Origin: Candidatus Zambryskiibacteriota bacterium
GTDB taxonomy: Bacteria; Patescibacteriota; Minisyncoccia; Phycocordibacterales; DATDWN01
Assembly: GCA_009694965.1 (NCBI GenBank)
Contig: SIBV01000002.1
Span: forward strand, 1-60,045
Length of the DNA stretch: 60,045 nucleotides
Direction: 5' to 3'
Positions 3,326-59,745 of this stretch are shown piece by piece. Each line of letters opens with the position of its first letter. Position 1 is the first letter of the stretch. The notes below the pieces were generated by a model. It saw only the letters and a program-made list of their open reading frames with translations, did no database searches and was not told where the DNA came from. The position numbers were made by a program, and so were the translations under genes.

Positions 3326-3348
3326 AGATATTTGTTCTCCTGTTTTCA

Positions 3349-3377
3349 ATCATATCACGACATAAGTACGATGTCAA
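3349..3377 (-). promoter_or_regulatory. sigma70-type promoter TTGACA-N17-TATGAT
   Basis: Minus strand: TTGACA (3372-3377), 17-nt spacer, TATGAT (3349-3354). The -35 starts 7 nt after the tRNA 3' end. Confidence 0.55.
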
Positions 3378-3383
3378 GTTTTG

Positions 3384-3697
3384 CTCCGCGGGTAGGGATC
3401 GAACCTACGACCAGTCGCTTACATTTGTTCCAAAGTTGCCTTTGGCATGGACTATATCATTATCCCTCTTGCGAGTAGGATATGGGGCGCTTCGCCTACT
3501 CACTTTCGTGACGGCTACTCTCTTTCGAGATAGTCTCTACACCTTCCCATGATTTTACTTGCTGTATTATCTTGGGCTTGGCTCGGGATTGTCCACATGG
3601 GAGTTCCCCGAATTCACCTCATTTTTCATCCTAAATTACTTTAGGAAGCTGCTGTACTTAGCAACAGGCGACTGCTCTACCACTGAGCTACCGCGGA
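3384..3697 (-). tRNA. tRNA-Asn(GUU) interrupted by a group I intron in the anticodon loop
   Basis: Exon 1 (3664-3697): TCCGCGG TA GCTCAGTGGTAGAGC A GTCGC CTGT. Exon 2 (3384-3421): TAA GCGAC TGGTC GTAGGTTCGATCCCTAC CCGCGGA G. Joined, they give a full cloverleaf with a 7-bp acceptor stem, loop CUGUUAA and discriminator G. CCA is not encoded. Confidence 0.85.
3422..3663 (-). ncRNA. group I intron (IC3-like, tRNA-intron type), ~242 nt, no ORF
   Basis: Contains GAATTCGGGGAAC, CCCGAGCCAAGCCC and GGGAAGGTGTAGAGACTATC. These closely resemble the J3/4-P4, P6-P7 and P7-P3 cores of the Azoarcus and cyanobacterial tRNA introns as I recall them. Ends in G (...ACAAATG). Splice sites are ambiguous by 1 nt. 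Confidence 0.75.
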
Positions 3698-3816
3698 ATG
3701 CTGTATTTATTTTAATCAAATAAACACATAAAGATGATACCAAAAACGGTAAAGAATGCAATTATGAGAGCTTTTGTTATACTTACTTATTCAAAGAAAA
3801 ATAATATAATAAAAAT

Positions 3817-5401: not shown

Positions 5402-6259
5402 GTGGGGGTGGTCGCTGTAATACTTATATTGAGTTCTTTTGGTTACGCAGGATATTCATTTTGGTTAATACAAAAACAGTATCTAAATTCCGAAACAAAA
5501 GTTCTGAATTTGGAAAATGGCCTCTCAGTTTCACAAAAAAATCTTTCTGAGCTTAAATCCGAGTATCTAACAACGCTTGAGCTTTTAAAAAACGAAAAAC
5601 AAACTAACGCTTACTTTGAAGAAAAGATAAATACAATCTCAAGCACTGTGGGAATTTTGGAAAAACTTAGCAAAATAGATTCAGAACTTTTGAAAAAATA
5701 CTCTAAAGTATATTTTTTGAATGAAAACTACATACCACCTAGATTAACAGATATTCCAACCAACTATCTGTATGTAAAGGACAAACCATTACAATTTCAT
5801 GCAGATGCCTATCCCTTCTTGCAAAAATTACTAGACGCTTCAATAACTGAAGGTGTTCCGATTTTAGTAATATCTGCTTATAGATCATTTGGCACTCAGG
5901 CTTATTTAAAATCTAGTTACAAGGTAACTTATGGAATCGGAACTGCCAATAAATTTTCTGCGGATCAAGGTTATTCTGAGCATCAGTTAGGGACGACTGT
6001 GGATTTTACTACGCAAGTAACAGGATCGAATTTTGTGGGTTTTGATAAAACAGATGCCTACAAGTGGCTCTTAGCAAATGCTTACAAATACGGATTTGTA
6101 ATCTCCTACCCAAAGCAAAACACTTACTATTCATTTGAACCTTGGCACTGGAGATTTGTAGGAGTAGCACTTTCAGCTAGGCTTCAAAATGAAAACTTAA
6201 ATTTCTATTTCTTAGACCAAAGGGAGATAGATCAAAATCTAGTTAACCTATTTGATTGA
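5402..6259 (+). CDS. D-alanyl-D-alanine carboxypeptidase, peptidase M15B / VanY family, N-terminal TM anchor
   Basis: SAYRSFGTQ, SEHQLGTTVDF and PWHWRFVG motifs. The GTG start is uncertain. Confidence 0.8.
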   Translation: MGVVAVILILSSFGYAGYSFWLIQKQYLNSETKVLNLENGLSVSQKNLSELKSEYLTTLELLKNEKQTNAYFEEKINTISSTVGILEKLSKIDSELLKKYSKVYFLNENYIPPRLTDIPTNYLYVKDKPLQFHADAYPFLQKLLDASITEGVPILVISAYRSFGTQAYLKSSYKVTYGIGTANKFSADQGYSEHQLGTTVDFTTQVTGSNFVGFDKTDAYKWLLANAYKYGFVISYPKQNTYYSFEPWHWRFVGVALSARLQNENLNFYFLDQREIDQNLVNLFD

Positions 6260-6260
6260 T

Positions 6261-6300
6261 GTTCAAACAAAAACCCCAGAATTGGGGTTTTTGTTTGAAC
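6261..6300. terminator. bidirectional hairpin terminator
   Basis: Perfect 18-bp stem gttcaaacaaaaacccca / tggggtttttgtttgaac between convergent genes. Confidence 0.7.
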
Positions 6301-6321
6301 CTTAAATCAAAACGATTTAGA

Positions 6322-6537
6322 TTACATTTGTGAACCTGACATGCACTCCTTGCAATGTGACTTGTGTGTAAGTGCCAAATAAAGTGCTGAAAGTCCAACT
6401 AGAACGTAAACAACCATAACAACTGCTGGCCATGAACCTAGGAGGGACTCTACTAGGTTATAACCAAATGCTACTAATCCCCAGTTTAGACCTCCAACTA
6501 CCAATAAAACAAATGCAACCATATGTAATGATTTCAT
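6322..6537 (-). CDS. DUF378 family small membrane protein
   Basis: 71 aa with the GGLNWGLV signature and two TM segments. Confidence 0.8.
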   Translation of the reverse strand: MKSLHMVAFVLLVVGGLNWGLVAFGYNLVESLLGSWPAVVMVVYVLVGLSALYLALTHKSHCKECMSGSQM

Positions 6538-6550
6538 ATAAAATTTTCTT

Positions 6551-6688
6551 TATCCGCACACCAACTTTAGTATCGTTGCATTGTGTCAAAATATAGATTT
6601 ACTATCTATATCTTTTTATCTTTCATTACTCTATTTATTAATGACAGAAGCAACAGAAGACACAATACTAAAGTTGGTGTGCGGATGT
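6551..6688. repeat. L-family long hairpin element, copy L1 (termini TATCCGCACACC / GGTGTGCGGAT)
   Basis: ~35-nt arms tatccgcacaccaactttagtatcgttgcattgtg / cacaatactaaagttggtgtgcggatg around an AT-rich ~65-nt loop. Confidence 0.8.
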
Positions 6689-6749
6689 ACTTAATTAATA
6701 ACAAGTACATTATACCAAAAGAAAATCAAATAATCACGAGCGGACTGTG

Positions 6750-6889
6750 TATATCCGCACACTAACTTTTACATCATTTTTGTTGTAAATTTAATATAAC
6801 CAGTAAGTTGAGCTTAATTTCCATACTAAAAATATGGATAATTTACTATTAAAAAATAAGACAATGTAAAAGTTAGTGTGCGGATATAC
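6750..6889. repeat. L-family long hairpin element, copy L2
   Basis: Arms atatccgcacactaacttttacat / atgtaaaagttagtgtgcggatat. The termini are conserved and the inner arms differ from L1 but stay complementary. Confidence 0.8.
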
Positions 6890-8546: not shown

Positions 8547-8727
8547 AAATTACTTATAAAACAATGACATTTTTTTAGTAACAAAACAAGTCAAAAGAAA
8601 GTTTGAGAGGTTTTAGTTGACTCAAACCCCAAAATTTGCTTTAATTAGCCAACTTCCGGCGGTTATGCCGGTTTTTAAATCATTATAATCTAATAAAACG
8701 ACCACTCTAGGAATTCGCACCATTTAA

Positions 8728-8835
8728 TTGAAGATTTGGATGCAATTCAAGGCGGAATGAGAAAATACGAAAAGCCTTACTCGTTGTAAGGTGACGAGCA
8801 TTTTTGAAATTCCAACGCAGAAGGGCGCCAAATAT
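8728..8835 (+). repeat. family-1 structured element, copy a
   Basis: AATTCAAGGCGG ... GCCTTAC-TCGTT-GTAAGGTGACGAG ... TTCCAACGCAGAAGGGCGCCAAAT. See the family-1 finding. Confidence 0.8.
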
Positions 8836-8847
8836 ACAATTAAACAT

Positions 8848-10635
8848 ATGGAAATAAGAAATATTGCGATAATAGCGCATGTTGACCATGGGAAAACCAC
8901 CCTTACGGATGCTCTCATGAAGCAAACTGGCATGACGACTGGCGACGTGACCATGGACTCAAACGCCCTTGAACAGGAGCGTGGTATTACTATTTATGCA
9001 AAAAACACTTCTGTTTACTACCCTCCAAAAGACTCAGGCAGAATCGTTACAAAAATCAACATAGTGGATACTCCGGGACACTCCGACTTCGGTTCAGAGG
9101 TTGAGCGAGTTTTGCGATCAATCGATACTGTTCTTCTCCTAGTCGATGCTCAGGAAGGACCTATGCCGCAGACTAGATTCGTACTCAAGAAATCACTTGA
9201 ACTAGGACTCAAGCCTATTGTTATCATAAACAAAATAGACAAGCCAGCTGCAAGGCCCGACGAAGTTCATGAGATGGTCTTGGAACTTTTCCTAGAACTA
9301 GGGGCCTCCGAAGAACAACTCGACTTCACTACTGTTTTCGCGATTGGACGAGAAGGAATAGCTAAAATGAAATTGACTGACGAGTCAAAGGACCTTACTC
9401 CCCTCTTAGAAACAATTCTTAGAGAAGTGCCAGCAGCAGGTGGAGACAAAACTAAGCCAGCAAAGATGCAATCCTTTAACCTTGCATACGACAACTTCCT
9501 TGGAAGACTGGCTGTTTGTAGAGTATATGAAGGTGTTATAAAAGTTGGAGACAATGTTTTTGTAAAACAGCATCACGACGAAAATGCTGCCAAAATCGTT
9601 CCTGGAAAACTAACAAAACTTTTTAGCTTTGAAGGCGTGAAGAGAGTGGAGACCAAAGAAGCATCTGCTGGAGATATTGTGATGATCGCAGGTCTTCCAA
9701 CTGTTTATATTGGAGACACTATCTGCCAAGACGAAACGACAGAACTCCTTCCATCTATAAACATCGATGAACCAACAATCTCACTTAACTTCCTTGTAAA
9801 CGACTCTCCTTTTGCTGGACGAGAAGGAAAGTTCGTAACTGGACGACAGATTCGCGACAGACTAGAGAAAGAACTCGAAGTAAACGTCGGCCTAAAAATT
9901 GATTGGAATAACAATGAATACTTTACTGTTTACGGACGCGGAGAACTTCACATTGCTATTCTCCTAGAAAACATGAGACGAGAAGGCTATGAAATGCAGG
10001 TCTCTCAACCACAAGTTATTATCAAAGAAGAAAACGGCGTGAAAACAGAGCCTTTCGAAGAAGTTACTGTGGATGTTCCTGATGCTGTAGCGAGCGCAGT
10101 TATCTCACGTCTCACAGAAAGAAAAGGCCTTCTTATGAATATCAAACAAGGTCACGGATCACAAAGACTTACTTTTGAAATCCCAACTCGAGGACTCTTG
10201 GGTTACAGAGGACAGTTTGTCGTTGATACAAAAGGACTAGGAATTCTATCATCTCGATTTATTGAATTTCGAGACTATGTTGGAGAAGTAAACAAAACAA
10301 CTTACGGATCAATGGTTTCAATGACAGCAGGAAAAGTTTTGGCTTTTGCACTAGACAACCTACAACAAAGAGGAACTCTGTACCTTGATCCAGGAGTTGA
10401 AGTTTACGAAGGAATGGTTATCGGAAACACCTCAAAAGGCGAAGACCTGTATGTGAATCCAACCAAAGGTAAGCAGTTAACAAACATGCGAGCGTCTGGC
10501 TCGGATGGAAGTGTTTACCTAGCAGCAACCTTTAAATTAGATATCGAAAAAGCTATGGAAATTATGTCAGGTGATGAATTTATTGAAATTACTCCAAAGT
10601 CTGTACGCCTCCGAAAGAAAGTTTTGAGGAAATAG
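8848..10635 (+). CDS. typA: translational GTPase TypA/BipA
   Basis: MEIRNIAIIAHVDHGKTTL, DTPGH, NKID, ~595 aa. Start placed at ATG 8848 because the ORF-track GTG at 8791 lies inside the repeat. Confidence 0.93.
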   Translation: MEIRNIAIIAHVDHGKTTLTDALMKQTGMTTGDVTMDSNALEQERGITIYAKNTSVYYPPKDSGRIVTKINIVDTPGHSDFGSEVERVLRSIDTVLLLVDAQEGPMPQTRFVLKKSLELGLKPIVIINKIDKPAARPDEVHEMVLELFLELGASEEQLDFTTVFAIGREGIAKMKLTDESKDLTPLLETILREVPAAGGDKTKPAKMQSFNLAYDNFLGRLAVCRVYEGVIKVGDNVFVKQHHDENAAKIVPGKLTKLFSFEGVKRVETKEASAGDIVMIAGLPTVYIGDTICQDETTELLPSINIDEPTISLNFLVNDSPFAGREGKFVTGRQIRDRLEKELEVNVGLKIDWNNNEYFTVYGRGELHIAILLENMRREGYEMQVSQPQVIIKEENGVKTEPFEEVTVDVPDAVASAVISRLTERKGLLMNIKQGHGSQRLTFEIPTRGLLGYRGQFVVDTKGLGILSSRFIEFRDYVGEVNKTTYGSMVSMTAGKVLAFALDNLQQRGTLYLDPGVEVYEGMVIGNTSKGEDLYVNPTKGKQLTNMRASGSDGSVYLAATFKLDIEKAMEIMSGDEFIEITPKSVRLRKKVLRK

Positions 10636-19934: not shown

Positions 19935-20055
19935 TTAAAACTTGTTGAGCGCATATTATTTTTAGAGGCCCCGCAGCCGACGGGCGAGGATTTGAGAGAT
20001 TTTTCACCAGAAAAATCGCGTACTCTAAAAATGATATGCCGAAAAAGAGTTTTAA
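19935..20055 (+). repeat. family-1 structured element, copy k (divergent)
   Basis: GTTGAGCGC...ttatttttagAG-GCCC..GGGC-GAGG...ctctaaaaatgatatGCCgAAAA. Confidence 0.55.
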
Positions 20056-30200: not shown

Positions 30201-30261
30201 ATATAATTTTGTACTTTTTTATTAAATAAAACTATCCTCATACTAAAACCTAAAAAACAAT

Positions 30262-30372
30262 AAAATTAGTTCAGATGCTAGGCGCAGAAGATTTTGTGAG
30301 CGAGCCTTATTCGATATAAGGTGAGCGAACAAAATTGAACTGCAACAACGCAGATGAATTGATTTTGTTGTT
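30262..30372 (+). repeat. family-1 structured element, copy f
   Basis: AGTTCAGATGCTAGGCGCAGAAGATTTTGTGAGCGAG-CCTTAT-TCGAT-ATAAGG-TGAGCGAACAAAATTGAACTGCAACAACGCAGATGAA. Confidence 0.75.
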
Positions 30373-30693
30373 TTTTAAAATAACAGACGAAAATAAGACC
30401 CTTTCCCCAAAGAGCCTCTATTTTCTGTTAGTTTTTATTAGCGATTGAAATGCAAAATAGTTCGAGAAACTATTAACCTAATGTTGCCTTCGCATTTGCC
30501 AAAACACAATCGTATGAAGTCAAGTAAGAGTATACTGGAAATAGGTATATCTTGTCAACAACTAAGTCAATGGAGTTATCCACATACTGTTCACGGTCAA
30601 TTTGACTTGAGTTACGCCATCCTAGGGTCTTTTTAATTGACTTAGTTGCTTGCTCATAATATCGTTATATATGGAAAGAATGGAGACCAATTC

Positions 30694-30918
30694 GTGCCAA
30701 TGACATCCGACAACCAATTTCTCTCAGGGATTTCAATTCGAGAGAACACCAACTCCATCCATCCGCGGTGGCGTTTCCTCGGAAGGGGCAAACTGACTGC
30801 TTCAAGCGGCGAAGTAAAATTCGTCCGTAGTTACGGAGAGACGGAGCGCGAAGCCTTGAAACTTCTGGCATGCCCAGACAACATGTCGCGACTGACTCCC
30901 GAAGAAGAAGTTAAGTAA
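30694..30918 (+). CDS. hypothetical 74-aa protein, GC-rich island D
   Basis: GGAGA SD 7 nt before the in-frame GTG at 30694. Terminator follows at 30984-31012. No family recognised. Confidence 0.45.
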   Translation: MPMTSDNQFLSGISIRENTNSIHPRWRFLGRGKLTASSGEVKFVRSYGETEREALKLLACPDNMSRLTPEEEVK

Positions 30919-30983
30919 TTCACCTGCTAAGTTTTCTGTCATTGAGAAAACCCATTCGAGTGGACTTCGACCACCCGCTCTAA

Positions 30984-31012
30984 AGCCCAAGGCTAATCCC
31001 TTGGGCTCTTTC
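30984..31012 (+). terminator. rho-independent terminator of island D
   Basis: agcccaagg ctaatc ccttgggct followed by ctttc. Confidence 0.55.
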
Positions 31013-31079
31013 ATATCTATTTACTTCCAAGTTCCAATATTCTTTTAAAATAAATCTGTATAATTTTACTCATTCTATT

Positions 31080-31703
31080 TTATATTACCTCAAACACATC
31101 TTTGGCTAGAGCTAAAAATTGGTCGCGTGTTTCAGGATTTTTGTCATAATGCATTGTAATAATCTTTCCAATTTTCCTGAATTTCTTCGCAAAATCAAAC
31201 GCCTCGTTAGGACCAAACGTATAAAATCCTCCAACAGGTAACAATAGATAATCTACCTCCAAGTCAGTTATGCCTATACCAGAAGCATAAAACATATCAC
31301 CAGCAAAATAAATAGTTTTTCCATCAACATTAAATAGAAAACCAAAATTCTCTGCTATTGGCGCAGAAATATTTGGCCCGTGGTCCACGTTAAAGGTTTT
31401 CACTGTGAAGTTAGTAGACAAGAATATGTCATTGTCAGATTCAATCTGAACTATTTTAAGCGCTGAATCATCCTCTCCCTCTACTTCGATACATTCTTTA
31501 TTTAAATAAACTATTTGAGGACTTAGTTTCTTAATATTTTCCATATGAAAGTGGTCTCCGTGAATATGCGAGACAAGGATCGCATCGACCTTGATGCCTT
31601 CTAGTTTTTCGGTTGGTGTTTTGTTTCCTATGTCAAAAGCAAGTCTAAACCCACTCTCTGTTTCTAATATAAACCCTGATTGTTCAAATTTTGTTAGTTT
31701 CAT
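31080..31703 (-). CDS. MBL-fold metallo-hydrolase
   Basis: VSHIHGDHF (HxHxDH) motif, 207 aa. Confidence 0.85.
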   Translation of the reverse strand: MKLTKFEQSGFILETESGFRLAFDIGNKTPTEKLEGIKVDAILVSHIHGDHFHMENIKKLSPQIVYLNKECIEVEGEDDSALKIVQIESDNDIFLSTNFTVKTFNVDHGPNISAPIAENFGFLFNVDGKTIYFAGDMFYASGIGITDLEVDYLLLPVGGFYTFGPNEAFDFAKKFRKIGKIITMHYDKNPETRDQFLALAKDVFEVI

Positions 31704-32320: not shown

Positions 32321-32406
32321 ATCACTATCATAACATTTTTGAACTTTCGTAAGTTTACCCCCCCCGTCTAACTTTATAATTTGAGACAAGGTCGCGTATA
32401 AAATCT

Positions 32407-32482
32407 GAAGTTGAATCCGAGCCTGCCTGAGTGTGCAGGTGAGGAAAAACTTTGGATTTTAGACGATGAGATTGGCCAAATT
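32407..32482 (+). repeat. family-1 structured element, copy h (short)
   Basis: AAGTTGAATCCGAG-CCTGC-CTGAGTG-TGCAGG-TGAGG...GACGATGAGATTGGCCAAAT. Confidence 0.65.
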
Positions 32483-32492
32483 TGAAAGTTAA

Positions 32493-33074: not shown

Positions 33075-33104
33075 ATATGTTTGAGAAATTCTTAATTTGA
33101 GTAA

Positions 33105-33194
33105 AGTTCGAGGCGGATGATGAATTTAATTCGAGTCGTACACCTAGTACGGTGAGGATTAAATTTTGAAATCCAACAAAGAAATTTGCCAAAT
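33105..33194 (+). repeat. family-1 structured element, copy d
   Basis: AGTTCGAGGCGGATGATGAATTTAATTCGAG-TCGTAC-ACCTA-GTACGG-TGAGGATTAAATTTTGAAATCCAACAAAGAAATTTGCCAAAT. Confidence 0.8.
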
Positions 33195-33207
33195 TTAGAA
33201 TTTCTAA

Positions 33208-33414: not shown

Positions 33415-33479
33415 TGTGTGTGTAATTTAAAGTAATAATATTAATCGGATGGAACACAAGAAATTGCAGAGATGAGTGC

Positions 33480-33568
33480 AGTTCGAGGCAGAATGTAAAA
33501 AAGAATTCGAGTCGTACACCTAGTACGGTGAGGATTATTTTTTATATTCTAACGATGAAATGTGCCAT
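33480..33568 (+). repeat. family-1 structured element, copy e
   Basis: AGTTCGAGGCAGAATGTAAAAAAGAATTCGAG-TCGTAC-ACCTA-GTACGG-TGAGGATTATTTTTTATATTCTAACGATGAAATGTGCCAT. Confidence 0.8.
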
Positions 33569-33581
33569 CTATCCAATTTCG

Positions 33582-39333: not shown

Positions 39334-40044
39334 TTACCTTGATTTAATCTTCCAAGCTTCTATTTTTTTATGATTTCCTGACAACAATATTTTAGGTACT
39401 CTGTACTTCTTTTTTTTGTATTCAAATACTTCAGGCCGAGTATAAACATCATGACTCGAAATTCTAGACTCTTCAAGTGAATCGAAGTTCCCTAAAACGC
39501 CTTCTATTTGTCTAGCAACACAATCTAGTACAACCATCGCAGGCAATTCTCCGCCAGTTAGAACAAATGGTCCAACAGAAATATCTTCCATTTTGAAAAT
39601 CTTTTTTACTCTAGCGTCGATGCCTTCATACCTTCCGGATACCAAGATAATATCAGTAAATTTTTTGGCAGCATTCTTAGCATAAGTTGTATCAAACTGT
39701 TTTCCGGACGGAGAAAAGAAAACTATTTTAGTAGAAGTTGGAATTAAGAATTTAGAATTTAGTTTTTTAGAATTCTCTTTTTTATTCCTCATTCTTAATT
39801 CTCTCTTCTTGATTCTATCCAAAGCTTTTTCAATCGCTTTAACTGTAGGCAGTGCTTGAATTACCATCCCTGGTCCTCCGGCATAAGGTTTTTGATCTAC
39901 TCTTTTCCATTTATCATCGCTGTAGTCCCGAGGATTATAAAAGGAAACAGAAATTTTCTTGTCTTCTATCGCTCGTGAAATAATAGACTCATTTAGATAT
40001 GAGTCGAAGGCCCCCGGAAATAAAGTAATGATGTGAAATCTCAT
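39334..40044 (-). CDS. trmD: tRNA (guanine37-N1)-methyltransferase TrmD
   Basis: MRFHIITLFPGAF, GGPGMV, GRYEGIDAR, LTGGELPAM. Confidence 0.93.
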   Translation of the reverse strand: MRFHIITLFPGAFDSYLNESIISRAIEDKKISVSFYNPRDYSDDKWKRVDQKPYAGGPGMVIQALPTVKAIEKALDRIKKRELRMRNKKENSKKLNSKFLIPTSTKIVFFSPSGKQFDTTYAKNAAKKFTDIILVSGRYEGIDARVKKIFKMEDISVGPFVLTGGELPAMVVLDCVARQIEGVLGNFDSLEESRISSHDVYTRPEVFEYKKKKYRVPKILLSGNHKKIEAWKIKSR

Positions 40045-40061
40045 GTCGAATTTATAATATA

Positions 40062-40150
40062 GCGTATTTCTTTGTTGCAGTTCAAAAAATATTCCTCACC
40101 TTACAACTAAGTAAGGCTCGTCTTATTTTTCTCTTGCGCCTCGAACTACA
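40062..40150 (-). repeat. family-1 structured element, copy g (the only minus-oriented copy)
   Basis: Reverse complement reads AGTTCGAGGCGCAAGAGAAAAATAAGACGAG-CCTTAC-TTAGTT-GTAAGG-TGAGGAATATTTTTTGAACTGCAACAAAGAAATACGC. Confidence 0.75.
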
Positions 40151-40210
40151 TCTATATTATTAATTCTTAGTTCTTAGCCTTTAACTTATACCACAAAAAA
40201 TTGAATTAGT

Positions 40211-40922: not shown

Positions 40923-41039
40923 CGGAACCTCCTAACCTAGCCATAACATATATATCAGAAAATGCAAGTCAAACAAAAAACACCCGTTTGGGAGTCTTCT
41001 GTTTATTTATCTAAATTTTTAAAACTATAATTTTGGATG

Positions 41040-41122
41040 AAGTTCAAGGCACGATGTTTTGTTTGCGACCAAGCTGTAGAATACTACTGCGCGTGGAGAA
41101 AACAAAACGAGCAACGCAGAAA
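41040..41122 (+). repeat. family-1 structured element, copy i
   Basis: AGTTCAAGGCACGATGTTTTGTTTGCGACC...GGAGAAAACAAAACGAGCAACGCAGAAATTCGCCAAAA. Confidence 0.7.
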
Positions 41123-41132
41123 TTCGCCAAAA

Positions 41133-41450
41133 TTAGAGTTTTAAGTCGTTCATGGCGTCATCGAGTGATTTGGTCGCACTAACCGGTCTAGCCTCTTGCA
41201 TCCCTCCTGCCGGCTCATTTATTTTCAAATTTACTCTTGCGTTGTTCTTCATGCCAACCACTCGAAGTAATGTTCTGATCGCTTTCGCTGTGTTTCCCTC
41301 GCGTCCTATGATTTTACCCATATCGTCTCGATGAACATCTAGTGTCATCAGAACTCCCATCTCATCTACCGTTCTAGTAATCTTTACATCGTCAGGATTT
41401 TCAACAAGCGCTTTTACTACAAAATCTAAAAACTTTACATCATTTTCCAT
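41133..41450 (-). CDS. KH-domain RNA-binding protein (YlqC/UPF0109 type)
   Basis: ALVENPDDVKI...GKIIGREGNTAKAIRTLL. Conserved neighbour of rpsP. Confidence 0.85.
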   Translation of the reverse strand: MENDVKFLDFVVKALVENPDDVKITRTVDEMGVLMTLDVHRDDMGKIIGREGNTAKAIRTLLRVVGMKNNARVNLKINEPAGGMQEARPVSATKSLDDAMNDLKL

Positions 41451-44725: not shown

Positions 44726-44845
44726 GCTCTGAAGATTTTTGTTTAAGTTCGAGGCGCAAGTGAGTAATGCGACTAAGGTGTATAGAAATACTCTGCAGGA
44801 GCATACGGAGCACAGCAACGAAGAAATGAGACAAAAAGATCAGAG
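44726..44845 (+). repeat. family-1 structured element, copy j (long outer stem)
   Basis: gctctgaagatttttgt...AAGTTCGAGGCGCAAG...GCAACGAAGAAATGAG acaaaaagatcagag. Confidence 0.65.
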
Positions 44846-47203: not shown

Positions 47204-47269
47204 TTAATATGGAAGGTTTTGGCTGTGCCAGAACCAATAAAGTGAGCTGTGCTCACAGGAGAGAGTGAC

Positions 47270-47605
47270 ATGCAACAAATCGTAAAGTTCGCAGGAATTA
47301 CTGCTGTTCAGGTAGCTTCCCTTGACGCAATTCTCAAGGAGGACTTCGTCAGTGCTCATGTTAGCAAATTGCGAGTTCGTAGCGTCGGTGATAGCTACAC
47401 TTACGAACTCTCCGTGCACATGGGTGATACCCAAACCGAAGTCCAATATTTCTACTTTCACAGAAGTTCCCGAATTCACACCAGGTTGACTTCTCGAAGT
47501 GTCATGATTGCTATCTACGACGCCCTTCAGGTTTTTCCGGAACAGGCCGTAGATGAATATACCGAGTGGGTCGAGATCCAGAACGCTCCAAGTAACTCGT
47601 ATTAG
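47270..47605 (+). CDS. hypothetical 111-aa protein, GC-rich island H
   Basis: AGGAGA SD 7 nt before ATG 47270. Promoter and terminator present. The antisense ORF 47204-47611 is rejected. Confidence 0.6.
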   Translation: MQQIVKFAGITAVQVASLDAILKEDFVSAHVSKLRVRSVGDSYTYELSVHMGDTQTEVQYFYFHRSSRIHTRLTSRSVMIAIYDALQVFPEQAVDEYTEWVEIQNAPSNSY

Positions 47606-47697: not shown

Positions 47698-47761
47698 ATA
47701 TATACTTTACAAAATATTCAATTTCTTGACAGACTTTCAGATTTGATTTATTTGTATTTTT

Positions 47762-47881
47762 GCTCTGAGGATTTTTGGTTTAGTTCAAGGCGGAATGAGA
47801 AAAGGCGAGGAGCCTTACTCGTTGTAAGGTGACGAGGATTTTTGAGATTCCAACGCTGAAATCGGACAAAAAGACCAGAGC
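47762..47881 (+). repeat. family-1 structured element, copy b (most complete)
   Basis: gctctgaggatttttgg TTTAGTTCAAGGCGGAATGAGAAAAGGCGAGGAG-CCTTAC-TCGTT-GTAAGG-TGACGAGGATTTTTGAGATTCCAACGCTGAAATCGG acaaaaagaccagagc. Confidence 0.85.
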
Positions 47882-48570
47882 TACTGCCAACCGCGAGTGA
47901 CGAGAGCTGCACGGGCGGCAAGTTGCTCTGCATCTTGTTTCGATTCCCCTTCTCCAGTTCCAACTAAATCCTTTCCAACATAAACCCCAACTGTAAATTT
48001 CTTTTCGTGATCAGGTCCAGTCTCTTTGATTGTTTTGTATGAAGGCGTAACGCCGTCGAACTCTTGGGCTTTTTCTTGAAACAAACTCTTTGCATCTATA
48101 AAACTTTTTGCAGAAATAATACTTTCAATCATTGGAGTAAAATTCTTTTCAATAAATTCATGTGCTTTTTCTAATCCTTGGTCAATATAAATAGCGCCAA
48201 TCAGAGCTTCCAGTGCATTCGCGAGTATGTATTGTCTAGCTCGTCCCGTATCTTTTGTTTCTCCTTTTGAAAGCATTAGATAATCTCCCATTTCCAAACT
48301 AGTGGCAATTTTTGCACAGGTATCAGCATTTACAAGTGCCGATCTATAAGCTGTAAGCTCTCCCTCAGCCTTGTCAGTGTACTTTTTGTATAGAAAATCA
48401 GTAATAACCAGTTCAAGCACGGCGTCGCCTAAAAACTCCAATCTTTCATTGTGAGAAAGTCCAGACTGCTTGTTCTCGTTTATATATGAACGATGAACAA
48501 AGGCCTGAGTTAAGAGGCTCAAGTCCTTGAAAGTGATGCTTATTTTGTTTTGAAACTCTGTAAAATCCAT
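47881..48570 (-). CDS. rnc: ribonuclease III
   Basis: NERLEFLGDAVL signature and a C-terminal dsRBD. Confidence 0.93.
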   Translation of the reverse strand: MDFTEFQNKISITFKDLSLLTQAFVHRSYINENKQSGLSHNERLEFLGDAVLELVITDFLYKKYTDKAEGELTAYRSALVNADTCAKIATSLEMGDYLMLSKGETKDTGRARQYILANALEALIGAIYIDQGLEKAHEFIEKNFTPMIESIISAKSFIDAKSLFQEKAQEFDGVTPSYKTIKETGPDHEKKFTVGVYVGKDLVGTGEGESKQDAEQLAARAALVTRGWQ

Positions 48571-57493: not shown

Positions 57494-57502
57494 TTTAAAA
57501 AC

Positions 57503-57608
57503 TTTCAGATTTGGATGAAATCCGACGTGAGAAATTAAAAATGTGAGGAGCCTTACTCGTTGTAAGGTGACGAGAATTTTTAATTTGGGAACGAGGAGTT
57601 CGCCAAAG
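57503..57608 (+). repeat. family-1 structured element, copy c
   Basis: ...GTGAGAAATTAAAAATGTGAGGAG-CCTTAC-TCGTT-GTAAGG-TGACGAGAATTTTTAATTTGGGAACGAGGAGTTCGCCAAAG. Confidence 0.75.
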
Positions 57609-57615
57609 ATGGAAG

Positions 57616-59745
57616 TTATATATCGAGGGTTGCTTTGGTTGCGTTGGACTGGATAAAAGACTTTCTCGCCGGCACATCCGTTCCCATAAGCACATCAAAA
57701 ACCTTGTCCGCTACGGCAGTGCTCTCCACAGCCACTTGTTTAAGGATTCTTCGAGCAGGATCCATAGTTGTTTCCCACAACTCGTCAGAGTTCATTTCTC
57801 CGAGACCTTTGTATCTCTGAGTCGGAGGCAATTTATTTTTATTTGGTTTTTTATCTTTCTTTGCTTCTTCATCAGACTCCTCTCCTTCTTCTTCTGTAAG
57901 TTCAGTTTCTACTACCCCCTCAATTACATTTTTATTTATTTTAGATAAATCATAACCTAAATTTTTATATATACTATCTCTATCTGAATCAGAATATGCA
58001 TAAAAAACTTCTTTCCCAGATTTTATTTTATAAAGTGGTGGTTGAGCGATATAGACAAAGCCTCCATCGATAAGTGGTCGAAAGAATCGATAAAGCAAAG
58101 TCAAAATAAGTGTTCGGATGTGCGCACCGTCCACGTCCGCGTCCGTCGCTATAATAATTTTGTGATAGCGCAGTTTAGAAATATCGAAAGTATCTCCAAT
58201 CGCTGTTCCTAAAGCGATCACCAAGTTCTTGATTTGCTCTGATTCAAGCATCCGATCGAGTCGCGCTCTCTCAATGTTGAGAATCTTGCCTCGAAGTGGC
58301 AGAATCGCCTGTGTGCGTCTGTCTCTTCCAGTTTTCGCCGTACCTCCCGCAGAGTCTCCCTCCACAATAAAGATTTCTGATTCTTCTGCTGACTTTGACT
58401 GACAGTCCGCGAGCTTTCCAGGCAAAGTCATACCTTCCAACGCGCCCTTTCGTAACACAGAGTCTTTCGCTGCCTTCGCCGCCTTGCGAGCTTTGAGGGC
58501 CAAAACTACTTTGTTAATAATCGCTTTGGCGTCATCTGGATTCTCCTCCAAGAAATACATAAAAGCTTCTGAGAAAATAGTATTCACTGACCCCTGTGCT
58601 TCCACAGTTCCCAGTTTTCCTTTGGTCTGACCTTCAAATTGAATCTCGCGTAGTTTCACTGATACAACTGCCGTCAAACCTTCAAGCACATCTTCACCTG
58701 TAAAATTATCCTCACTTTCTTTAATTAAATTATTCTTGCGTCCGTATGAGTTAAGAATTCTCGTCAGTGCGGTTTTGAAACCAGTGACATGAGTTCCTCC
58801 TTCTGGAGTATTGATGTTGTTAGCGAAAGCAGAAAGTCTGCATGTAATGTCATCCACGTATTGGAGTGATACTTCCACTGATTCCCATTCGTTGGTTTTC
58901 TTTTCTACATAAAAAACATTTTTGTGAACAGGCTTTTGAGTACTGTTCATAAACTTCACGAGTGAAAGTAATCCTCCTTCAAAATAGAATGATAGTGATG
59001 GAACCTCCAGTTCTAATTCTCGGATTTTAAAAACATCCTCTTCTTTTATTTTGCCTGTGTACTGTGTTGCATCGATAACAGTAATGCGCAAACCTTTTAC
59101 AAGGTACGCTTGCTGTCGCATGTGGTCCATTACTCTATTTGGATTGAATTCGATGATTGGGAAAATAGCTGGATCTGGCTCAAACACGACTATTGTTCCA
59201 TTCTTTTTAGTTGAACCTATTTTTTTGACAAGGGCTTTTTTCTTGCCTTGTGAATACTCCTGCATATAAATGCCACCCTCTTTGTGAACAGTCACTTTAC
59301 AATAAATAGAAAGTGCATTTACCACAGATGCTCCCACTCCGTGTAGTCCTCCAGAAACTTTGTAACCTCCATCTTCACCTCCGAACTTTCCTCCAGCATG
59401 GAGGGTTGTCATAATAGTTTCAAGAGCAGAAACTTTTGTTTGTTTGTGAATATCAACTGGAATTCCTCGTCCGTTGTCTGTGACTCTAATTCTGTTTCCA
59501 GGAAGGAGTGTAACCTCGATATCATCGGCAAAACCACCCATGGCTTCGTCGCGAGAGTTGTCAAAAATTTCTGTAATAAGGTGATGTAGACCGTCGAGTC
59601 CTGTCGTACCAATATACATTCCAGGTCGCTTTCTAACCGGCTCTAGGCCCTCTAAAATCTGGATCGCACTAGCCCCGTAGGAGTCTTTGGTATTTGATTT
59701 CTTTGCTACATTATTATCTTGTTTTTTCTCTTCTTTCTTCGCCAT
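57616..59745 (-). CDS. gyrB: DNA gyrase subunit B
   Basis: YGASAIQILEGLEPVRKRPGMYIG, GGLHGVGASVVNALS, EGDSAGG, PLRGKILN, DADVDGAHI. Confidence 0.96.
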   Translation of the reverse strand: MAKKEEKKQDNNVAKKSNTKDSYGASAIQILEGLEPVRKRPGMYIGTTGLDGLHHLITEIFDNSRDEAMGGFADDIEVTLLPGNRIRVTDNGRGIPVDIHKQTKVSALETIMTTLHAGGKFGGEDGGYKVSGGLHGVGASVVNALSIYCKVTVHKEGGIYMQEYSQGKKKALVKKIGSTKKNGTIVVFEPDPAIFPIIEFNPNRVMDHMRQQAYLVKGLRITVIDATQYTGKIKEEDVFKIRELELEVPSLSFYFEGGLLSLVKFMNSTQKPVHKNVFYVEKKTNEWESVEVSLQYVDDITCRLSAFANNINTPEGGTHVTGFKTALTRILNSYGRKNNLIKESEDNFTGEDVLEGLTAVVSVKLREIQFEGQTKGKLGTVEAQGSVNTIFSEAFMYFLEENPDDAKAIINKVVLALKARKAAKAAKDSVLRKGALEGMTLPGKLADCQSKSAEESEIFIVEGDSAGGTAKTGRDRRTQAILPLRGKILNIERARLDRMLESEQIKNLVIALGTAIGDTFDISKLRYHKIIIATDADVDGAHIRTLILTLLYRFFRPLIDGGFVYIAQPPLYKIKSGKEVFYAYSDSDRDSIYKNLGYDLSKINKNVIEGVVETELTEEEGEESDEEAKKDKKPNKNKLPPTQRYKGLGEMNSDELWETTMDPARRILKQVAVESTAVADKVFDVLMGTDVPARKSFIQSNATKATLDI

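Follow-up and report, generated by a model that had tools for sequence, protein, structure and literature searches.

Miniature inverted-repeat transposable elements (MITEs) are usually seen as lineage-restricted junk defined by its ends, and to our knowledge the known families are each confined to a genus or a family. Here, we describe a mobile repeat of this kind in which the interior is the conserved part. Ten copies lie in a 60,045-nucleotide stretch of Candidatus Zambryskiibacteriota DNA (GenBank assembly GCA_009694965.1, contig SIBV01000002.1, positions 1 to 60,045; hereafter the window), a bacterial chromosome segment with a G+C content of ~39% that carries rpoB, rpoC, dnaG, dnaE, gyrB, rnc, trmD, khpA, typA and an RNase R gene. 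By named relatives of its TypA and RNase III, the segment belongs to Parcubacteria/Paceibacterota, close to Zambryskibacteria. The element moves as DNA and leaves short target-site duplications, and the fold of its core is preserved by compensatory change across phyla, whatever terminal repeats surround it. The reading that we favour, with a probability of roughly 60%, is a non-autonomous MITE-type transposon whose interior is kept for its single-strand fold, most probably as an RNA acting on flanking transcripts through their stability, their processing or the binding of a factor.

An earlier note, made from the letters of the window, had described eleven copies (a to k) of a structured intergenic element. 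The sequences are as described at all eleven positions, and the count holds for ten of them. A covariance model, R1, was seeded with 14 copies, all from other genomes and none from the window; with filters off it recovered ten copies in the window (21-87 bits; nine on the plus strand and one, copy g, on the minus strand), with no further match below E = 1. The core motif of the apical stem P3 has four matches in the window against 0 in shuffled sequences, and the conserved 5' box has 11 against a mean of 2.9. The remaining candidate, k, was rejected as a family member: it is a separate 120-nt hairpin that has neither box and is unmatched by R1.

A copy consists of a single long hairpin, interrupted by purine-rich internal loops, within a unit of 120-170 bp that includes a conserved core of ~80 nt. 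At the base stands the outer helix P0, which commonly includes a tandem G-A loop of the AGAU/AGAU type; above it follow an invariant A-U pair and a G.A mismatch, the helix P1 (UUC/GAA) and a conserved purine-rich internal loop in which RAGGC lies opposite AACRNA with one internal G-C pair. The upper rod consists of P2a, a purine-rich loop and P2b, which varies in length, and the apex has the form 5'-GA-P3-GA-3', with conserved U-A/A-U pairs in P3 and a variable loop of 3-8 nt. Arm lengths are near-constant, at 37-39 and 37-41 nt in nearly all copies. P0 is formed by bases 3' of GAAAT that covary with bases 5' of the AGTTC box, and the GCC that had been paired with the GGC of the 5' box belongs to this helix instead. 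An outer stem had been thought particular to copies b and j, whose outer arms are identical (GCTCTGARGATTTTTG / CAAAAAGAYCAGAG), but every copy has one, reaching 5-9 bp past the R1 model; the outermost arms are complementary yet different between subfamilies, and the hairpin spans the unit to its very ends. An extra duplicate of the 5' arm upstream of the hairpin is recurrent in Desulfobacterales, in Clostridia, in nested Neisseria copies and at L132 (loci in other genomes carry L numbers); it might serve as an additional transposase site or offer the 3' arm another pairing partner.

The element resembles two RNA motifs, in both cases by sequence pattern. The 5' box AGUUCRAGGCG matches the T-loop pattern GUUCRANNC but differs from it in the model, where its UUC is paired with GAA and no T-loop is closed, and the 5'-GA-stem-GA-3' apex and the AGAU/AGAU loop are compatible with tandem sheared G-A pairs as in kink-turn-like loops. 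Insertions of 30-60 nt stand beside the apical stem at L110 (814-956 and 2459-2600), L051 (2784-2951), L026 (2189-2319), L063 (3335-3468) and L066 (~2356-2540). The two L110 insertions are in part reverse-complementary to one another, a hint at a still smaller mobile hairpin.

The fold is supported by covariation, including that of the apical stem and P2, for which it had been proposed. In a MAFFT seed alignment, which was not fitted to any structure and is therefore the cleaner test, 84.5% of cells at modelled pairs are paired, compared with 36-44% when the partners are slid, and 24 of the 35 modelled pairs change on both sides. The corresponding values for 123 distinct model-aligned sequences, an alignment that leans towards the model, are 86.6% (36-44% slid) and 32 of 35, and they were reached by 0 of 500 shuffles. 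The orthologous copies at L098 and L100 differ by compensatory pairs.

Mismatches at paired positions are strongly asymmetric, with 248 of the G-U type against 98 of the A-C type (2.5-fold) and 216 G-A against 38 C-U (5.7-fold). Purines make up 73% of the unpaired consensus columns, in line with the purine-rich loops and plus-sense G-U pairs that the note had pointed out. The sense strand folds more stably in 115 of the 123 copies, averaging -36.1 kcal/mol against -28.7 kcal/mol for the antisense strand. Because a neutral DNA palindrome would not give an asymmetric mismatch spectrum, the core fold is under selection on one strand in single-stranded form, as had been claimed, and the element shows the helix covariation on one strand that marks a selected structured RNA in general.

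Within one genome, interiors are closer to each other than to their orthologues. Window copies a, b, c and g have a common P3 and copies d and e another, irrespective of P0; d and e differ from each other in both P2 and P0. At the typA and khpA sites the interiors are canonical in the window and of the divergent c type in GCA_034680565.1, with equal orientations; in this second assembly a near-identical variant of copy c thus occupies loci different from that of c, namely the typA leader and the khpA spacer. Such homogenization indicates gene conversion or repeated replacement, and therefore not every compensatory difference is an independent event that took place in situ.

Mobility is evident from the flanks of the copies in three lineages. 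Desulfobacterales copies are bounded by GAYGG...CCRTC and have copy-specific exact direct repeats of 5-7 bp at 13 of 21 copies, compared with 9 of 420 mismatched control pairs. Direct repeats of 6 bp flank four of seven Bacillaceae copies (1 of 42 controls), and repeats of 4-5 bp flank seven of 16 Neisseria copies, six of them with 5 bp (17 of 240 controls); across the three lineages 2-7% of control pairs have such repeats. A CAGAT...CAGAT pair in Neisseria copies was rejected as an inner target duplication; it corresponds to the AGAU/AGAU tandem G-A loop of the structure, which is found again in other lineages.

The Neisseria termini, GAGACCTTTGCAAAA / TTTTGCAAAGGTCTC, are the inverted repeats of ISNme1 (PMC4596501, Table 2), an IS5-family insertion sequence (IS) that has been proposed as the parent of the ATR MITE (PMC4596501). 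The same termini surround unrelated interiors in L029 and L035, and the Neisseria shell is demonstrably a generic MITE shell of the IS5 type. Since these are IS5-family ends, a transposase encoded elsewhere would mobilize the element. No locus has a gene between the 5' and 3' boxes, as an autonomous version would, the only insertions there being the apical ones, of 30-50 nt. Other terminal inverted repeats occur in the candidate phyla radiation (CPR), namely GGACTTAC...GTAAGTCC and GCTCTGARG...CAGAG. The terminal repeats thus differ between lineages while the interior is conserved, and therefore the core is not the transposase-specific part. Copies are also nested inside one another, including in Neisseria, and insertions occur beside or inside host hairpins and terminators. 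In Clostridia, copies adjoin intrinsic terminators, and a stretch of 18-30 bp that takes in the entire terminator hairpin is present on each side as a repeat.

Orthologous sites are polymorphic. The window, L132 (TypA identity 89%) and L133 (88%) have a copy in the typA leader, whereas this site is empty in L131 (96%), L134 and L136. In syntenic relatives (L138-L140) the sites of copies b, j, g and c are empty: that of b in all three, that of g in L138 and L139, and that of j in L138, which lacks the entire hairpin together with its outer arms. The site of copy i is filled in L138, with the orientation kept and a c-type interior, and empty in L139. With 10 copies in 60 kb of the window against 7 in 207 kb of the syntenic relatives' loci, the element has multiplied recently in this genome. 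It is a mobile DNA unit because target-site duplications are found in three lineages, IS5 ends in Neisseria, and nesting and presence/absence polymorphism besides. The note had set a selected structure against duplication and had recognized no MITE class. The first half of that contrast stands, the structure being constrained, and the second falls: the copies are transposition products, with target duplications, ISNme1 ends, nesting and empty sites, and the element is a mobile MITE-like repeat as well.

To assess its spread, the pattern AGTTCRAGGC-N40-70-CAACRNWGAAAT was scanned over one genome per species, giving at least 120 loci. Among the pattern matches listed, R1 confirms ~150 copies and rejects a few chance matches; pattern and model together gave more than 150 copies. 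The carriers are labelled as ~12 phyla and comprise both metagenome-assembled genomes (MAGs) and isolates; their taxonomy is taken from record titles, and MAG labels can be wrong. They include many CPR groups with Saccharibacteria among them; Desulfobacterales and other Thermodesulfobacteriota; Methylococcales, Methylophaga, Thiomicrorhabdus and several commensal Neisseria; Arcobacter, Bacillaceae, Clostridia, and Simkania and other Chlamydiia; Chlorobium, Brocadiia, Phycisphaeraceae, Elusimicrobia and Melainabacteria; and one Bacteroidetes MAG and one Bacteriovoracaceae MAG. Up to four copies occur in 8 kb in Desulfobacterales, and same-orientation tandem copies are found in L003, L022, L033 and L072.

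No named RNA family had been recognized in the element, and Rfam 15 agrees: no family overlaps any window copy, either at the gathering threshold or at E <= 5, and those without a match include hammerhead, twister, hatchet, pistol, HDV-like, HEARO, IS605-orfB, T-box and Y RNA. At the gathering threshold the sole overlap in 18 foreign loci is a 10-nt end shared with an adjacent Bacillaceae-1 RNA in L030. This RNA (RF01690, 40.6 bits; L030 6308-6374, minus strand, Bacillus sp. REN16) abuts the 5' side of the element and stands where the usual Bacillaceae left terminal repeat would be; the arrangement may be a nesting of two repeat families. Copy b and seven concatenated variants had no blastn match in collections of plasmids and phages, and of eight pattern matches in viral contigs one (L128) is real by the covariance model, so the element does not appear to be phage- or plasmid-borne in the sets searched. 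Literature searches found no description of the family, which is weak evidence of absence given partial coverage of journals, and full-text searches for the box and terminal-repeat sequences returned the ISNme1 inverted-repeat table alone.

Of the copies that lie between co-directional genes, 34 are antisense and 13 are sense. According to the database gene calls of the window, copies d, e, h, f and i lie antisense between minus-strand genes, the neighbours of b, j and c are convergent, and copies a and g lie sense, directly before start codons. In the sense copies a and g and those of L048, L132, L133 and L135 the model match stops 8-16 nt upstream of the start codon, and the typA-leader arrangement of copy a is repeated in L048, L132 and L133. 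Such a bias in orientation is consistent with selection acting on transcripts. All-against-all BLASTP of 752 neighbouring open reading frames (ORFs) and Pfam scans of the flanking genes gave no recurrent protein family.

Under the favoured reading, lineage-specific terminal inverted repeats would wrap the conserved ~80-nt core and the transposase would be supplied in trans. The relevant folded form would be a sense-strand RNA made by co-transcription with the neighbours; we infer this because the core shows no co-variation with the transposase-specific ends and because the orientation to genes is biased. By analogy with REP, ERIC and Correia repeats, the core would then be a putative factor-binding, stability or processing module for flanking transcripts. 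Sense copies would place it before start codons or at 3' ends, and antisense copies in co-directional pairs would put the weaker complement in the transcript. A bolder proposal is that the core (~80-105 nt) constitutes a novel class of structured nucleic acids with a putative specific biochemical activity of its own (binding of a universally conserved cellular factor, self-cleavage or processing), spread through at least a dozen phyla inside unrelated MITE shells as a 'cargo RNA' whose function would account for the variety of transposon backbones that carry it; we put this forward tentatively, as possible but not probable.

Several points weigh against the favoured reading. No clear flanking direct repeats were seen at the window's own copies, and no parent IS or transposase was found for the Parcubacteria copies or beside any copy. 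G-T and sheared G-A pairs form stably in single-stranded DNA as well, and the mismatch asymmetry alone therefore does not separate RNA from single-stranded DNA. Part of the compensatory change may reflect gene conversion or subfamily replacement, given the homogenized interiors. The count of 34 to 13 uses crude ORF calls and includes many loci from related MAGs, and in the window gene direction is confounded with replication, the GC skew being negative where genes lie on the minus strand, so the orientation bias could be replicative. Finally, the invariance of the boxes is inflated, since both were required by the pattern that yielded most of the foreign copies; drift of the boxes is visible in copies found by the model alone (c, h and f, L133 and L138).

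The selected fold could instead matter as single-stranded DNA, as an intermediate of transposition or replication, as the substrate of a structure-specific enzyme (compare attC, IS200/IS605 ends and REP/RAYT) or as a priming signal, with selection acting on mobility. G-T and G-A pairs are tolerated in DNA hairpins, and much of the anatomy suits such a role: the hairpin reaches the unit ends, its outermost arms stay complementary though they differ by subfamily, and the 5'-arm duplication recurs in Desulfobacterales, Clostridia, Neisseria and L132. So do the insertions beside or inside host hairpins and terminators, the duplication of a whole 18-30-bp hairpin in Clostridia, and an orientation bias on the strand that is also correlated with GC skew. 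However, target duplications from staggered cuts and IS5-type inverted repeats point to a double-stranded DDE mechanism, and the core is conserved under different terminal repeats and so is not transposase-specific. IS200/IS605-type elements, moreover, use the lagging-strand template, whereas the folding strand in the window is the complement of the G-rich (leading) strand. We consider this explanation unlikely.

A lower likelihood still attaches to a core that functions as an RNA in its own right (as a small RNA, by sequestering a protein or as a self-cleaving ribozyme) and for which the MITE shells are only vehicles. Its internal loops are conserved across phyla (AGUUCRAGGCG, CAACRNAGAAAU and the apical GA-stem-GA), its helices covary and its geometry is constant, and the same-orientation tandem copies would suit it too. 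One copy lies within a tRNA operon: in a Chlorobium MAG (L050 1807-2159, minus strand) the element stands between two co-oriented tRNA genes on the same strand, where it would be co-transcribed and released by tRNA processing. In Clostridia (L079, L106, L112, L086 and L082) a 5' module just upstream of the main hairpin contains TTGACA-N15-TGATAGGCT, like a promoter with an extended -10 box, and a small hairpin, TTGTTGACAAAGTCAACAA, and a host terminator follows the element. A promoter/terminator scan of two Clostridial copies, which required a spacer of 16-18 nt, did not call this motif, and an own promoter in Clostridia is therefore a lead only. Against a free RNA, no promoter or terminator is conserved across lineages and no U-tract comes after the hairpin in the window; there is no match to a known ribozyme or RNA family, most operon copies are antisense to the sole obvious transcription, and no protein gene recurs in the neighbourhood.

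Very improbable is an ordinary palindromic MITE with an unselected fold, whose complementarity would come from its inverted-repeat origin and from repair or gene conversion. MITEs are commonly near-palindromic and the interiors here are homogenized within genomes, but such a palindrome should have symmetric mismatches instead of the 2.5-fold and 5.7-fold excesses observed, and the asymmetric internal loops and the arm lengths persist across phyla under different ends. An intrinsic or bidirectional terminator copied around the genome is the least probable explanation and was rejected, since, although copies b, j and c have convergent neighbours and insertions elsewhere adjoin terminators, no U-tract or T-run follows the hairpin in the sense direction in window copies, and sense copies stand inside the leaders of expressed genes, between promoter and start codon of typA and of trmD, an essential gene that must still be expressed downstream of copy g, so that the sense RNA is not a strong terminator.

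The copies in the window and their parts are listed in Table 1.

Table 1. Copies of the element in the window, parts of copy b, and the separate hairpin k. Folding energies are given for the sense and the antisense strand.
Feature	Position	Strand	R1 score (bits)	Fold, sense vs antisense (kcal/mol)	Context and remarks
Copy b, full hairpin	47761..47883	+		-39.8 vs -27.6	Convergent neighbours: 118-aa gene 47249-47605 (+) and rnc 47881-48570 (-)
Copy b, R1 match	47768-47876	+	84.2
Copy b, outer stem	47762-47777 / 47867-47881	+
Copy b, 5' box	47782-47792	+			AGTTCAAGGCG
Copy b, P2a	47792-47796 / 47847-47851	+
Copy b, P3	47812-47818 / 47824-47830	+			Loop 47819-47823
Copy b, 3' box	47851-47862	+			CAACGCTGAAAT
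Copy a	8723..8844; R1 match 8729-8838	+	63.4		Sense, typA/bipA 5' leader; R1 match stops 10 nt upstream of ATG at 8848
Copy f	30251..30377; R1 match 30259-30369	+	61.6		Antisense, 59 nt upstream of rpoB start (30200), within 880-nt stretch without a called gene
Copy h	32369..32491; R1 match 32374-32486	+	21.3 (E 0.005)		Degenerate, 5' box eroded; antisense, flanked by S24 peptidase gene and GDSL lipase gene
Copy d	33084..33205; R1 match 33090-33199	+	87	-25.8 vs -14.4	Antisense, flanked by 68-aa gene and S24 peptidase gene
Copy e	33460..33580; R1 match 33465-33575	+	72.4	-31.1 vs -16.1	Antisense, 51 nt upstream of 68-aa gene
Copy g	40048..40166; R1 match 40053-40161	-	77		Sense to trmD, between -10-like box (TGTGGTATAAG) and trmD ATG at 40044; R1 match stops 8 nt upstream of ATG
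Copy i	41019..41145; R1 match 41027-41137	+	49.1		Antisense, spacer between khpA and next gene of rpsP-khpA-trmD cluster
Copy j	44726..44845; R1 match 44732-44841	+	51.7		Convergent region, SMC-like gene and RNase R gene
Copy c	57496..57622; R1 match 57505-57613	+	34.5		Divergent subfamily with boxes AAATCCGACGTG / GGGAACGAGGAGTT; convergent neighbours: pspC-like gene and gyrB
Hairpin k ("copy k")	19935..20055	+	no match	-42 (own fold)

Hairpin k has a GAGG-stem-GAGG apex and outer ends (TTAAAACT/AGTTTTAA) similar to the ends of copy i; possibly it represents another interior within a comparable shell, like those in Neisseria. The typA leader into which copy a is inserted (window 8600-8690 and L131-L136) is conserved in Parcubacteria, with a promoter-like TTGACT...AAATTTGCTTTAAT followed by a CCGGC-loop-GCCGG hairpin and a T-run, attenuator-like, which stand ~15-35 nt upstream of the ATG in the insertion-free L131, L134 and L136. 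This spot has received at least three variants of the element, and at the same site in L135 (~9790-10060) there is a different palindromic insertion of ~190 nt with arms CTTAATCACATCTTTTTGGAG / CTCCAAAAAGATGTGATTAAG. Upstream of rpoB (window 30201-31081), rplJ and rplL are not at their usual place, and the region contains copy f and a 90-aa ORF on the plus strand. In L139 (18700-18750) the trmD start codon follows 7 nt after a -10-like box, TGGTATAAAT, which suggests that the trmD mRNA may be leaderless there, and in the window (40044-40200) copy g turns the trmD start region into a structured leader of ~150 nt.

Two further features of the window concern other elements. A group I intron lies at 3429-3731 on the minus strand (Rfam, 66.7 bits; flanks 3340-3428), and the sequence directly 3' of it on that strand resembles the 3' half of a tRNA (GGTCGTAGGTTCGATCCCTACCCGCGGAGCA); the intron probably splits a tRNA gene, although ARAGORN found no tRNA in the window or in the joined intron flanks. 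At 6548-6690 and 6749-6889 stand two tandem hairpins of ~140 nt with arms GTATATCCGCACACYAACTTT... that are 83-96% complementary, and at 6256-6305 a 23-bp near-perfect palindrome. The tandem-hairpin region has sub-threshold matches to plant and animal microRNA models, and the features at 6256-6889 look like a second palindromic repeat family.

The fold described here, which has no entry in Rfam, is kept in genomes that bear the labels Patescibacteria, Desulfobacterota, Proteobacteria, Bacillota, Chlamydiota, Chlorobiota, Planctomycetota and others. If it is a functional RNA, it would be among the most widely distributed unannotated bacterial RNA motifs, with several cultured carriers, among them Neisseria shayeganii 871, N. 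dentiae, Lentibacillus kapialis JCM 12580, Oceanobacillus locisalsi, Brevibacillus sp. H7, Wukongibacter sp. M2B1 and Thiomicrorhabdus sp. ZW0627; if it is a DNA intermediate, it would add a structure-dependent step to an otherwise ordinary DDE transposition. In practical terms, the element gives rise to spurious ORFs, occupies typA and trmD leaders, breaks assemblies and confuses the annotation of reduced CPR genomes, in which its copies take up a visible share of scarce intergenic space.

Among described systems, REP, BIME and REPIN sequences, which depend on RAYT, are likewise abundant intergenic imperfect palindromes, and REP hairpins affect mRNA stability in a manner for which orientation matters. 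However, REP sequences are 20-40 nt long with a GTAG-type head, have no target duplication and are linked to RAYT, whereas the element measures 120-170 bp and has target duplications, and no RAYT-like neighbour was seen among the neighbouring ORFs clustered; membership was rejected on size, target duplications and the clustering of neighbour genes. Integron attC sites, which are recognized by their structure, have a length of 60-140 nt and share a strand-specific fold with unpaired bases and a variable sequence under a conserved structure. Their RYYYAAC...GTTRRRY boxes pair at the base, whereas the element has GTTC on its 5' side and CAAC on its 3' side, not paired together, and they occur in cassette arrays with an integrase nearby, whereas copies of the element lie between housekeeping genes (rpoB, typA, trmD, rnc and gyrB) and also in Bacillota. 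On the order and pairing of the boxes, attC membership was rejected.

The omega RNAs of HEARO/IscB and of IS605-orfB/TnpB and the bridge RNA of IS110 are also structured RNAs scattered on mobile DNA, often without a protein gene. They have variable guide segments, whereas the element has conserved internal loops, target duplications and no Rfam match, and no nuclease or recombinase gene recurs beside the copies among the 752 neighbouring ORFs. Elements of the IS200/IS605 type (PATEs) were rejected because they have no duplication, a fixed flanking tetra- or pentanucleotide and subterminal hairpins, in contrast to the variable direct repeats found here. Likenesses to the hammerhead, the hairpin ribozyme, the sarcin-ricin loop and the signal recognition particle RNA were dropped by eye, the order and pairing of the boxes being unfit and Rfam silent.

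The closest relatives are therefore MITEs such as the ISNme1-derived ATR, Correia/NEMIS, ERIC, RUP and bcr1, which are also small, non-coding and multicopy, with inverted repeats, short duplications, nesting and polymorphism, which also lie in intergenic regions and beside terminators, and which would also form a long hairpin if transcribed. The element has the size and copy number of a MITE, terminal inverted repeats, target duplications (in three lineages other than that of the window) and polymorphism at orthologous sites. Literature comparison points to a parent IS, ISNme1, for the Neisseria copies only. The element differs from known MITE families in that its ends vary by lineage while an interior of ~80 nt is conserved in sequence, in geometry and in strand-specific pairing across ~12 phyla.

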